Both the position numbers and the translations under genes were made by a program. This document shows positions 19,113 through 36,951 of a stretch of 64,000 nucleotides of DNA, piece after piece; position 1 is the first letter of the stretch; every line of letters starts with the position of its first letter. The notes below the pieces were generated by a model. The model worked only from the letters and a program-made list of their open reading frames with translations, was not told where the DNA came from and made no database searches. Source of the DNA: an uncultured Actinomycetota bacterium (GTDB lineage: Bacteria > Actinomycetota > Thermoleophilia > RBG-16-64-13). The stretch is taken from NCBI GenBank assembly GCA_963701105.1, contig OY969565.1, positions 1,101,086 to 1,165,085 of the forward strand, in the 5' to 3' direction.

Positions 19113-19622
19113 TTATTTGAAATTCTTTTTTGCTAAAACTAAGGCTCCAATGGTTGCTGCTAAAAGTAAAAATCCTGCAGCTTCGAAAGGAACTATATAA
19201 TTGATAAAAAGAGTTCTTCCTATTGATTCAACAGTTCCCGCATTAATACTGGCTGCAACTTCTCCTGTAACTTCGCCGGATTTGGAAAAGAAAATCATGT
19301 AAGCTATCTGTAAAAAAACAAGAATAGTTATAACAATAGCCATAATTTTTATAGCTGGTTTATTCTCAAAAATACTTTCTTTTTGCGGTCTTAATAACAT
19401 TATTACAAAAAGAAACAAAACCATAATCGCTCCGGCATAAACTATAACCTGTGCAACTGCAATAAACTGAGCGTTTAACAAAAGATAAAGTCCTGCAATT
19501 GAAGCCAAATTAAGAACCAGAAATAAAGCAGATATTACAGCATCACTTCTGGTGATCATTATAACAGATGAAATTGCTGCAACAGCACCGAAGAGAATAA
19601 AGAGGATAATTTCTAAAGACAT
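19113..19622 (-). CDS. nuoJ: NADH-quinone oxidoreductase subunit J
   Basis: Motifs [21 protein letters not shown] and [16 protein letters not shown]. Confidence 0.95.
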
Positions 19623-19628
19623 AATAAT

Positions 19629-19663
19629 AATGGTTGATGTATGATGGTTGATGGTTGATGTTT
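19629..19663 (+). repeat. Tandem heptamer array (5 x GATGNNN), left flank of the four-helix-bundle gene
   Basis: AATGGTT GATGTAT GATGGTT GATGGTT GATGTTT. Confidence 0.85.
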
Positions 19664-19671
19664 ACTTTGCA

Positions 19672-20043
19672 TTATTTCACCTGATTTTGTTGAGCAGTCA
19701 TCTTAATGGAAGTAAATATCTTCTTCAACTCAAAACTTTCTTTTAAAATGTGATTAAACTTTCCGTTTTTAAATTGCTCATCAAGAATTTTGTCAAGTAC
19801 TCTTAACCAATGATTACTTTCACGCACTTCTTTCGATACAATTCCAATTTTGTGAATGAAATCTTTACTTGATTCAGCACCCTGTGCTTCCTCGTAATTT
19901 GCACCTACTGATGTCGATGCCTTTGCCAATTGAAAAGTTACTACTCTTAATGTAGCTTTTGAATGTAAAGATTCAAGGAACAATAAACAATCGACTCCAA
20001 AATCAAAAGTTCTTTTAAGTAGTTCTTCGGTTTTAGAATTCAC
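19672..20043 (-). CDS. Four helix bundle protein (23S rRNA-IVP / TIGR02436-like family)
   Basis: GTG start; RTFDF...QLAKASTSVGANYEEAQGAESSKDFIHKIGIVSKEVRESNHWL is the family signature. Confidence 0.9.
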   Translation of the reverse strand: MNSKTEELLKRTFDFGVDCLLFLESLHSKATLRVVTFQLAKASTSVGANYEEAQGAESSKDFIHKIGIVSKEVRESNHWLRVLDKILDEQFKNGKFNHILKESFELKKIFTSIKMTAQQNQVK

Positions 20044-20082
20044 AACTCTAATTTATATTTTCCAATTACAATTTTTACTAAT

Positions 20083-20117
20083 CCACATCTTCAATCACAC
20101 ATCAAACATCGTCCATC
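20083..20117 (-). repeat. Tandem heptamer array (5 x GATNNNN), right flank, inverted relative to 19629-19663
   Basis: Minus strand GATGGAC GATGTTT GATGTGT GATTGAA GATGTGG, starting at the G of the asnS TAG stop. Confidence 0.8.
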
Positions 20118-21412
20118 TAAGGAGTATTTCTGTAAATCATTCTTGGGAACGGAATAGTTTCCCTGATATGATCAAGTCCGCAAATCCATGAAACAGTTCT
20201 TTCTAATCCTAAACCAAATCCTGAATGTGGTACTGAACCGAATCTTCTCAGATCAAGGTACCATTCAAAATCTTTCATAGGGAGATCGTGTTCTTTAATT
20301 CTTTCTATTAATAAATCAATATTATCTTCCCTCTGACTTCCGCCAATAATTTCGCCATAACCTTCAGGGGCAAGAACATCCACAGCAAGTGCAAGTTTCG
20401 GATTTTCCGGATCTCTTTTCATGTAAAATGCTTTAACAACAGATGGATAACGATGAACCATTACAGGTCTGTCAAACTGATTTGAAATGATTGTTTCATC
20501 CGGTGCGCCAAAATCATTTCCGTATTCAAATTCACTTCCGTTCTTTTTCAGAATTTCTACAGCTTCATCGTAAGAAATTCTTGGGAGCGGTTTCTTAACA
20601 TTCATTAAAAATTTTATATCTCTCTCAAGAACTTTTAATTCTTCTTGTCTGTCTTTAATTACAATCTGAACAATATATTCAAGGAATTCTTCGGCTAAAT
20701 CCATATCATCATTTAAATCGGCAAAAGCAACTTCAGGTTCACACATCCAGAATTCTGTTAAATGTCTCTTTGTTTTGGATTTTTCTGCGCGGAATGTCGG
20801 TCCGAAGGTATAAACTTTTCCAAGAGCCATTGCACCGGCTTCTGCATACAATTGCCCCGACTGGGTTAAATAAGCTTTACCTAAATCAAAATATTCTGTT
20901 TCAAATAATGTAGAAGTACCTTCGCAGGAAGACGGAGTAAGAATAGGAGGATCCATTAAAGTGAATCCGTTCCCGTCAAAGAAATCTCTAATGGCTTTTA
21001 CTATTCTATGGCGGACACGAAGAATTGCAACCTGTTTGCTTGAACGTAACCAGAGATGACGGTTATCCATTAAAAATTCTACACCATGTTCTTTTGGAGT
21101 AATCGGATAATCGTGAGTTTCAGAAATTATTTTCAGATCAGATGCGTCAAGTTCAAATCCGCCCGGTGCTCTCTGTTCAGCTTTTACTTTGCCGGTAATT
21201 TCAATTGAAGATTCCTGCCCTAATTTTCCCGCTAACTCAAATACTTCTTCGGAAACGTTTCCTTTAAAAAACACACACTGCAAATAACCTGATCCGTCTC
21301 TTAGAATAAGAAAATGCAGTTTGCCGCTTGATCTTTTATTGTAGAGCCAGCCTTGTATCTTAATTTCTTTGCCAACGTATTTCGATAAATCTGATATGAA
21401 AATTTTCTGCAT
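20117..21412 (-). CDS. asnS: Asparagine--tRNA ligase
   Basis: OB-fold N-terminus ([17 protein letters not shown]), [17 protein letters not shown]...RHLTEFWM and GFGLGLER. Confidence 0.95.
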
Positions 21413-22281: not shown

Positions 22282-22480
22282 AAATTTTTCTCCCGAACAA
22301 AACTAAATATTATTTTTATTTAATAGATTAATTCTAATCACTTGATATATAATTTACTGATTTGCGATTTAACTAATTGACTAGCATTTTCGCGGCTTTT
22401 TATATTTTATATTTTTGATTTAATTCCAATCTTAATGTAATTTTTCAGTTCACAAAAAAAATCTCAGCAATTTCGTAAAA

Positions 22481-36486: not shown

Positions 36487-36951
36487 ATGAATATTTTAAA
36501 GAAAATTATGCGGTATAACACTATTCTTTTTACGGGAATTTTGTTTTCAGTTTTAATAATTGCTCCACAGTCTTTCGCACAGCAGAATATGGGAAATATG
36601 CATAACAATATGAACCAGAATATGCAGCACCAGATGAATAATATGCATGAAATGATGCAGCAGATGAACAATATGAATGATCAAATGGGAAATATGATGC
36701 AGCAGCAGAATCAAATGCAGAATATGCAGGGAATGAATTCACTGATGGGAAATATGCATAATATGTCCGGGCAAATGAAAGACATGTTGTCTCAAATGGA
36801 TGAGATGATGCAGAACAAATCTTACCAGACGAATGAGGGAATGCACAAGAACATGGAAGAAATGATGGACAATATGAAAAACATGATGAACAATTTTAAA
36901 GGGATGATGAATAACTTCGAAGAATCAAAACCAGATAAAACTCAGAAGTAA
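36487..36951 (+). CDS. Secreted Met/Asn/Gln-rich protein
   Basis: AGGAGG RBS precedes the ATG at 36487; signal peptide ends SFA|QQ; about 33 Met and 5 His in the 123-aa mature part. Confidence 0.8.
   Translation: MNILKKIMRYNTILFTGILFSVLIIAPQSFAQQNMGNMHNNMNQNMQHQMNNMHEMMQQMNNMNDQMGNMMQQQNQMQNMQGMNSLMGNMHNMSGQMKDMLSQMDEMMQNKSYQTNEGMHKNMEEMMDNMKNMMNNFKGMMNNFEESKPDKTQK

Follow-up and report, generated by a model that had tools for sequence, protein, structure and literature searches.

Two genes of one operon, asnS and nuoJ, are separated in contig OY969565.1 by a small gene framed by two arrays of heptamers that face each other, which raises the question of what this arrangement is and how it came to lie there. 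We analyzed it in a 64-kb stretch of the contig (positions 1101086-1165085, hereafter the window, to whose first letter the other coordinates refer), in which asnS, the small gene, nuoJ, nuoK and nuoL are all encoded on the minus strand. The small gene codes for a four-helix-bundle (4HB) protein of the S23p/IVP family, and an earlier note on this DNA had taken the gene and its arrays for a possible self-contained cassette, either mobile or resembling the intervening sequences (IVSs) of 23S rRNA. The cassette is real and discrete; it is IVS-like, lies in a formerly coupled asnS|nuoJ junction, is maintained by selection and is part of a widespread design. As an explanation of the whole we favor, with modest confidence, an IVS-type element that resides in a messenger RNA operon rather than in an rRNA gene.

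The asnS|nuoJ cassette and its empty sites

The cassette measures 494 nt (19623..20116, minus strand), runs from the asnS stop codon to the nuoJ ATG and is missing from the empty sites of relatives described below. Its 5′ arm (20083..20117, minus strand) consists of the five heptamers GATGGAC, GATGTTT, GATGTGT, GATTGAA and GATGTGG, as delimited from the sequence, by a pattern match with 0 mismatches and by pairing with the 3′ arm in minimum free energy (MFE) and centroid folds. The arm is followed by an A/T-rich spacer of 39 nt, read from the sequence as the presumed 5′ leader of the 4HB open reading frame (ORF; 20044..20082, minus strand), by the 4HB gene itself (S23p/IVP, PF05635/TIGR02436; 123 aa, GTG start; 19672..20043, minus strand) and by the 3′ arm (19629..19663, minus strand). 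The latter is built of five heptamers of the reverse-complement type of the 5′ arm (AAACATC, AACCATC, AACCATC, ATACATC and AACCATT), for which Tandem Repeats Finder gave a period of 7 and 4.4 copies. The upstream host gene, asnS (asparaginyl-tRNA synthetase, 431 aa; 20117..21412, minus strand), was taken from the ORF list and matches Pfam tRNA-synt_2 (3.9e-73) and tRNA_anti-codon; the downstream host gene, nuoJ (NADH-quinone oxidoreductase chain 6, 169 aa; 19113..19622, minus strand), is followed by nuoK and nuoL. As the earlier note had described, the cassette fills almost the whole gap between the two genes: the right array starts in the TAG stop of asnS (20117-20119, minus strand), the first G of the arm being the last base of the stop and the one base common to both, and the left one ends 6 nt before the nuoJ ATG.

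Searching the window for five consecutive GATN4 units with at most one mismatch returned 2 sites in 64 kb, namely the two arms on opposite strands, so the inverted pair of five-unit arrays reported earlier was recovered exactly; shuffles gave an expectation of 0.01, and 0 of 100 shuffles reached 2 sites. The only other period-7 array that Tandem Repeats Finder detected in the window is TTTTATA (2.6 copies, 22398-22415), and the left array is the sole ATG-phased array of at least four units on the whole contig. A repeat search found inverted terminal repeats, the arms being complementary over 24 nt at 79%, and a strand-neutral local alignment gave 24 identities over 32 columns with the unit GATGTTT in both arms, in agreement with an earlier hand alignment (24 of 35 positions). 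No target-site duplication is visible at the cassette borders, and the cassette holds no transposase, the 4HB gene being its only ORF. Rfam found no family at the gathering score and, at E <= 1, one chance snoRNA match; it found no rRNA in the window, and the cassette is located between asnS and nuoJ, not within a 23S rRNA gene.

The searches for relatives were centred on Ignavibacteria loci, not on the nominal high-GC relatives of the assembly. The order asnS-4HB-nuoJ is kept in 25 related loci besides the window, in each of which (GATGNNN)n immediately follows the asnS stop and (NNNCATC)n immediately precedes the nuoJ start, and the asnS-nuoJ gap of cassette-bearing loci spans 481-687 nt (494 nt in the window). 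Empty asnS|nuoJ sites, without both arms and without the gene, were found in 7 Ignavibacteria genomes (L129, L131-L134, L136 and L137), where the gap is -1 to 6 nt, as in a TAATG overlap; L152 is an eighth if its 21-nt gap is included. In the AsnS tree, the empty sites take basal positions and the 22 rows that bear the cassette are distributed over several strongly supported clades, inside which absences are also nested: L130 and L131 are sisters of the cassette-bearing L030, and L128 is the sister of the cassette-bearing L025, with flanks ~93% identical and an indel that spans exactly stop to ATG. The self-contained cassette postulated in the earlier note is borne out by this exact indel and by the empty sites. 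The comparison shows the insertion of a unit of ~490 nt, comprising 5′ arm, leader, 4HB gene and 3′ arm, at the exact border of asnS stop and nuoJ start, a junction that is tightly coupled in relatives without the cassette.

Two of the absences are not clean. In L128 and L130, which belong to different AsnS clades, a nearly identical solo array of 48-51 nt (AATGTAC AATGTAT ... AATTAAG) replaces the cassette, and its unit resembles the arms of another paralogue (AATGTAG type; L159, L171), not the ATGG arms of the cassette. This solo array may be the scar of another cassette or a product of recombination. In genome G086, the asnS|nuoJ site is empty and the gene is carried elsewhere.

The age of the insert was read from a 4HB tree that takes in the 20 syntenic copies that could be placed. 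In this tree 19 of the 20 form one clade (100/97) whose inner clades mirror those of AsnS, the co-divergence with the host spanning AsnS identities down to ~77%. The 4HB gene evolves ~10-30 times faster than AsnS, and the median ratio of nonsynonymous to synonymous substitution rates (dN/dS) among orthologues is ~0.16. The 4HB copy of L044 clusters among non-syntenic copies (100/93), whose TATGG dialect is also that of its arms; therefore, at this junction, the unit was exchanged as a whole or inserted anew. Pseudogenised copies with stop codons occur in L032 and L076. Taken together, trees and alignments show one insertion in an ancestor of one Ignavibacteriaceae clade, with vertical inheritance afterwards, the protein being under purifying selection, and with occasional loss or replacement as a whole unit. 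The cassette at asnS|nuoJ is, by this evidence, old and not recently mobile.

Two further features of these loci were recorded. In L032, besides the stop codons in the 4HB frame, the upstream flank is expanded to 197 nt. In L020 and L033, GC-rich palindromes, e.g. CCCTGCCTTGCCGGCAGGCAGG, are inserted within the heptamer arms.

The contig itself, of 1.34 Mb, has ~65% GC up to ~990 kb and ~35% GC afterwards, the window lying in the low-GC part, which belongs to Ignavibacteriaceae by its protein homologues. Its two parts seem to come from two organisms, joined as a chimera. The taxonomy of the assembly follows the high-GC part, and, because the contig is chimeric, its assembly "relatives" are 65%-GC genomes with spurious matches. 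The region of the GC switch, at about 980,000-1,000,000 of the contig, lies outside the window. Separately, overlapping imperfect tandem repeats with periods of 30 and 21, rich in A, G and ATG, were detected by Tandem Repeats Finder at 36604-36705 of the window.

The protein and its heptamer-framed relatives

The product of the boxed ORF matches PF05635 (2.1e-12, 47.6 bits, curated cut-off 33.8) and TIGR02436 (5e-19, 68.4 bits, cut-off 24), within which its subfamily is divergent and low-scoring. AlphaFold2 confidently predicts an up-down four-helix bundle (pLDDT 94.5; helices 3-24, 30-54, 59-86 and 94-122). The best Foldseek matches of the predicted structure are 2RLD (TM-score 0.75; sequence match 2.5e-18), 2GSC and Avd, the accessory protein of diversity-generating retroelements (DGRs), which agrees with the relation to Avd stated in the earlier note. 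Both 2RLD and 2GSC contain five chains, and the S23p protein of Xanthomonas is reported to be a homopentameric toroid (PMC4990558). By analogy we infer a homopentameric toroid for the 4HB protein as well.

Beyond the asnS|nuoJ junction, the design was followed in a subfamily sample of 81 loci from Ignavibacteriota, Bacteroidota and Fidelibacterota. At least three ATG-phased units upstream together with at least three CAT-phased units downstream were found in 65 of the 81 loci, and few loci show the opposite orientation. The 3′ arm holds 4-5 units in 56 of the 81, the upstream arm up to 17, and the median spacer between arm and start is 41 nt (39 nt in the window). The unit consensus is R-ATG-G-W-A, and its ATGG core is kept across the three phyla at 48-60% protein identity; a divergent protein clade (L082, L086 and L092) has switched to other units. 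Non-syntenic copies occupy ~10 other lineage-specific operon junctions among 80 loci. The operon-junction habit suspected earlier is real, with co-directional neighbours in 45 of 58 loci and a first arm unit at most 9 nt from the upstream stop in 34 of 43.

This subfamily has one copy per genome; complete relatives carry 2-17 PF05635 genes each. The inverted heptamer flanks that the earlier note looked for around other family members were found not only for orthologues but also for paralogues: for 13 of 20 paralogues in two genomes, the inverted flanks score beyond the 99th percentile of shuffles; each of the 13 has its own heptamer, e.g. AATGTAG, CCGGATN, AAATCTC or GGTATAN, and the period is 7 nt throughout. 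The design extends to a Bacteroides gene that is 98% identical to the crystallised BT_0352 (PDB 2RLD) and lies between araD and araA in the araMPRDAB operon. This BT_0352 relative (L176-L178, 1935-2430) has near-perfect arms, (TTGACAA)5 and (TTGTCAA)4, that both the MFE and the centroid fold pair into a stem of 31 bp (z = -4.4); the published account of the Bacteroides araMPRDAB operon lists the BT_0352-type gene merely as hypothetical. No paper linking PF05635, TIGR02436 or BT_0352 to heptamer repeats was found in the literature searched, in which the widespread design of a gene plus heptamer arms is not described.

What the arms may do

The cassette is probably transcribed within the asnS-nuoJKL message because neither a promoter nor a terminator is predicted within it: a promoter/terminator scan gave no terminator between asnS and nuoJ and no promoter-like signal above chance in the cassette. 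In this RNA, the 5′ arm (20117-20083; GAUGGAC GAUGUUU GAUGUGU GAUUGAA GAUGUGG), directly continuing the asnS stop, would pair with the 3′ arm (19663-19629; AAACAUC AACCAUC AACCAUC AUACAUC AACCAUU), which is separated by 6 nt from the nuoJ AUG, and the ORF would be looped out above a closing stem of ~25-30 bp. The base of such a stem would bring the asnS stop and the nuoJ start side by side. The stem would be a likely substrate of RNase III, as in rRNA IVSs, and cutting would free the 4HB message and part the flanking cistrons. The only RNase III match of the contig lies in its high-GC part, and rnc is present in cassette-bearing relatives. The encoded ring-shaped pentamer most likely reads the arms unit by unit, on RNA or DNA, with autoregulation, stem protection and cassette spread as candidate purposes. 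RNA looping with RNase III processing, and recognition of the repeats by the protein, would be the most likely mechanisms.

The pairing proposed in the earlier note was seen in silico in the window, where both the MFE and the centroid fold pair the two arms and enclose the ORF. In 67 of 80 cassettes, 20 or more pairs from flank to flank were predicted to enclose the ORF (median 41, longest-helix median 11.5), while 33 of the 150 controls, displaced by 900 nt, reached this number (median 7, longest helix 5), and the median complementarity of the arms over the 80 loci is 26 nt at 87%. An arm also pairs better with its own partner than with the arms of other loci (double-centred residual -5.5 kcal/mol, z = -6.8, 0 of 5000 permutations).

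A number of observations weigh against looping and against an IVS-type element. The window stem is weak, its longest helix being 7 bp compared to the median of 11.5 over all loci, and the window fold as a whole is no better than shuffles (z = -0.78). A sense-strand comparison of G.U with A.C mismatches, made to detect selection at the RNA level, was not significant (61 vs 43, p = 0.095), the pair census of RNAduplex being biased to G.U by construction and left unused for this test. Many arm mismatches are transversions, the unit numbers of the two arms are uncorrelated (rho 0.17), and between close relatives units are reshuffled in just one of the arms (L018 vs L090). The mismatch, arm-length and one-arm-change results speak against a simple constraint on an RNA stem. 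In a Pedobacter/Sphingobacteriaceae clade (L066, L077, L078, L081, L083, L084, L088 and L089) the sense arm upstream has degenerated or is absent, CAT-type arrays stand both upstream and downstream, and no closing stem is predicted. The S23p protein of Coxiella is apparently not made (PMC4990558). Finally, solo arrays in the dialect of the cassette arms occur at 5-10 other intergenic sites per genome, with no partner array within 1.5 kb.

Such solo arrays bear on a doubt that the earlier note had raised against itself, that similar arrays might occur independently of the gene; in part they do, at other operon junctions. Most of them run in the sense direction and immediately follow a stop codon, at sites (L094-L113; G041, G043, G044 and G046) that include fabH|fabD, nuoC|nuoD, lpdA|lipB, ugd|fcl and the downstream side of a toxin-antitoxin pair, and they are conserved between the related genomes G043 and G044. 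The heptamer dialect is genome-specific and common to arms and dispersed solo arrays. All 6 sampled genomes with an orthologue have >10 ATG-phased arrays each; many such arrays are also present in G053, G068 and G163, genomes without a strong subfamily match, and therefore the arrays are not exclusive to the gene. When the neighbours of solo arrays and cassettes were compared for signs that the former are scars of the latter, no junction common to both was found in this small sample. Arrays also take other forms. Genome G160 (L114-L125) holds an element of ~115 nt resembling a miniature inverted-repeat transposable element (MITE), in ~20 copies often at contig ends, composed of ACATAGCGCGGTAAACCGCA, then a 31-nt GATGGAA-type array and then a TTGACA...TACTATA promoter-like tail. 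At L031, an ATGG array is directly followed by a CCAT array with no ORF between, and such gene-less hairpins flank the cassette on both sides.

The strict 7-nt period, the 3′ arm of 4-5 units and the ATGG core are not needed for pairing. Since they go beyond what pairing needs, and since relatives of the protein are pentameric, recognition unit by unit suggests itself. Carried further, this gives a reading, overlapping in part with our best explanation, which we regard as possible though doubtful: the arrays would chiefly serve the pentameric 4HB protein as docking sites, each subunit taking one 7-nt unit of single-stranded RNA or of DNA, their inversion would enable the protein to bracket and regulate its own gene, the solo arrays would be its regulon and the pairing of the arms a by-product. 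It would account for a 7-nt period that is universal although the arm sequences of paralogues are unrelated, for the 4-5 units of the 3′ arm in 56 of 81 loci, for an ATGG core kept across three phyla with a unit switch in one divergent protein clade, and for the genome-specific dialect shared by arms and solo arrays. That arms shuffle their units rather than make compensating changes also fits, as do the five chains with which family members crystallise and the RNA-protein complex in which Avd works. However, a protein reading one RNA strand would miss the complementary arm, complementarity is higher within than between loci, and the many ATG-phased arrays of G053, G068 and G163 occur without a strong subfamily match.

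It is unlikely, in our judgment, that the cassette is a mobile element acting at the DNA level, whose arrays would be the terminal inverted repeats or hairpin ends of a transposase-free unit, moved by a host or trans-acting enzyme (cf. REP/RAYT and MITEs, below) with the 4HB protein as end-recognition factor. Presence/absence polymorphism with exact boundaries, the ~10 different junctions occupied among 80 loci, the whole-unit replacement in L044, the empty site of G086 with the gene elsewhere, the ORF-less array pairs beside L031, the ~20 copies of the ~115-nt MITE-like array element in G160 and the existence of pseudogenised copies would all be expected of such an element. Against it stand the single subfamily copy per genome, the co-divergence with the host down to ~77% AsnS identity and the purifying selection on the gene; neither a target-site duplication nor a transposase was seen at the cassette and no reverse transcriptase on the contig, and the arms of close relatives differ by slippage-like unit changes, unlike conserved termini. 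The mobility considered in the earlier note is to be qualified at asnS|nuoJ, where the cassette is old and vertically inherited with no sign of target-site duplication or transposase.

An incidental association, in which heptamer repeats are a generic intergenic slippage product and the gene merely lies among them, could draw on the solo arrays at other junctions and on the many kinds of heptamer arrays, control phases included, that abound in the Ignavibacteria G146, G200 and G055, but is highly improbable and strongly disfavoured, as no such array other than the two arms exists in the 64 kb, the upstream-sense and downstream-antisense layout holds in 65 of 81 loci and is almost never reversed, unrelated heptamers surround paralogues and the BT_0352 relative in the same design, and empty sites lack both arms and gene.

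Known systems and the meaning of the locus

Among known objects, the S23p-bearing IVS of 23S rRNA comes closest to the cassette. IVSs encoding S23p/IVP are found in the 23S rRNA of Coxiella burnetii, Leptospira, Xanthomonas and Brucella (PMC4990558). The IVS of Coxiella, of 428-444 nt, has terminal inverted repeats that form a closing stem of 28 bp, in which RNase III cuts, and its 5′ arm consists of 2-3 tandem GACAGAT heptamers, their number depending on the strain (PMC4990558). The parallel drawn in the earlier note is closer than it had supposed, as the Coxiella arm is itself a row of tandem heptamers, in a stem that RNase III cuts (PMC4990558). The cassette shares with these IVSs the protein family and the size class (494 nt compared to 428-444 nt), an ORF looped out by terminal inverted repeats of ~28-35 nt (in the cassette, in its predicted fold), a heptamer-built arm of variable unit number (the 5′ arm in Coxiella; five units per arm here), absence from relatives and vertical inheritance within a lineage. 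It differs in lying between two protein-coding genes of an operon and not in helix 45 or 25 of 23S rRNA, in an ORF under purifying selection where that of Coxiella is decaying and apparently untranslated, and in a stem interrupted every 5 bp; excision by RNase III, shown for rRNA IVSs, would be the expected fate of the cassette. Every structural feature of an S23p-bearing IVS is present in the cassette except the defining rRNA location.

Avd (PDB 4DWL, 8UB7) shares the four-helix-bundle fold (TM-score ~0.7), forms a pentameric ring and acts in complex with RNA. The sequence identity of the 4HB protein to Avd is ~12%, however, and there is neither a reverse transcriptase nor a template/variable repeat near the cassette. 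We know of no Avd gene boxed by heptamer arrays. As a search for PF00078 found no reverse transcriptase match anywhere on the contig and the neighbours are asnS and nuoJ, a DGR was rejected.

The short tandemly repeated repetitive (STRR) sequences of Cyanobacteria are intergenic heptamer direct repeats. Comparable direct repeats of TAACTGA, their function unexplained, occur between genes of Beggiatoaceae, Cyanobacteria and Bacteroidetes (PMC4679880). Like the arms, these repeats are intergenic tandem 7-nt units in 2-6 or more copies, mostly forward and near start or stop codons; their sequences are specific to lineages, and their occurrence across the phylogeny is patchy. They were described as solo direct arrays without a linked protein, whereas here an inverted pair frames one gene family.

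A REPtron is a RAYT transposase gene flanked by inverted repetitive extragenic palindromes (REPs), which are dispersed in the genome. REPtrons and MITEs resemble the cassette in that inverted copies of a repeat, which is also dispersed between genes, enclose a single-copy gene, and differ from it in that the cassette has no Y1-transposase or nuclease domain, its repeats are periodic arrays instead of single palindromes, and no target-site duplications were found. Insertion sequence, MITE and REPtron were each rejected as identities, given the lack of a transposase and of a target duplication, the single copy and a boxed gene that belongs to PF05635. Ring proteins of the TRAP type bind evenly spaced short RNA repeats. 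As a working analogy, each subunit of a ring oligomer could read one short repeat; the fold of TRAP is unrelated and its period different.

To our knowledge, the S23p/IVP family has remained without a known function since the rRNA IVSs were described ~30 years ago, and the heptamer tandem repeats of bacteria are equally unexplained. The asnS|nuoJ locus ties the two together in an analysable setting, as a dated insertion into a once-overlapping stop/start junction with 25 orthologous cassette-bearing loci besides the window, empty sites, losses and one replacement, its protein being clearly under selection. Tentatively, one may go further and picture S23p/IVP pentamers as sequence-specific readers of 7-nt repeats, each paralogue matched to a heptamer of its own; genes with inverted arms would then be very widespread minimal, transposase-free cassettes inside host transcripts, the IVSs of 23S rRNA would be copies that landed in rRNA, and solo arrays at operon junctions (TAACTGA, STRR, GATGGAA) might be footprints or targets. 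The presence of the BT_0352 relative in an arabinose-inducible Bacteroides operon makes direct tests practical in a laboratory strain. Should the gene indeed be looped out by the arms and these be cut, the cassette would be an mRNA counterpart of the rRNA IVSs and would show how such an insert can be tolerated without harm in a translationally coupled operon.

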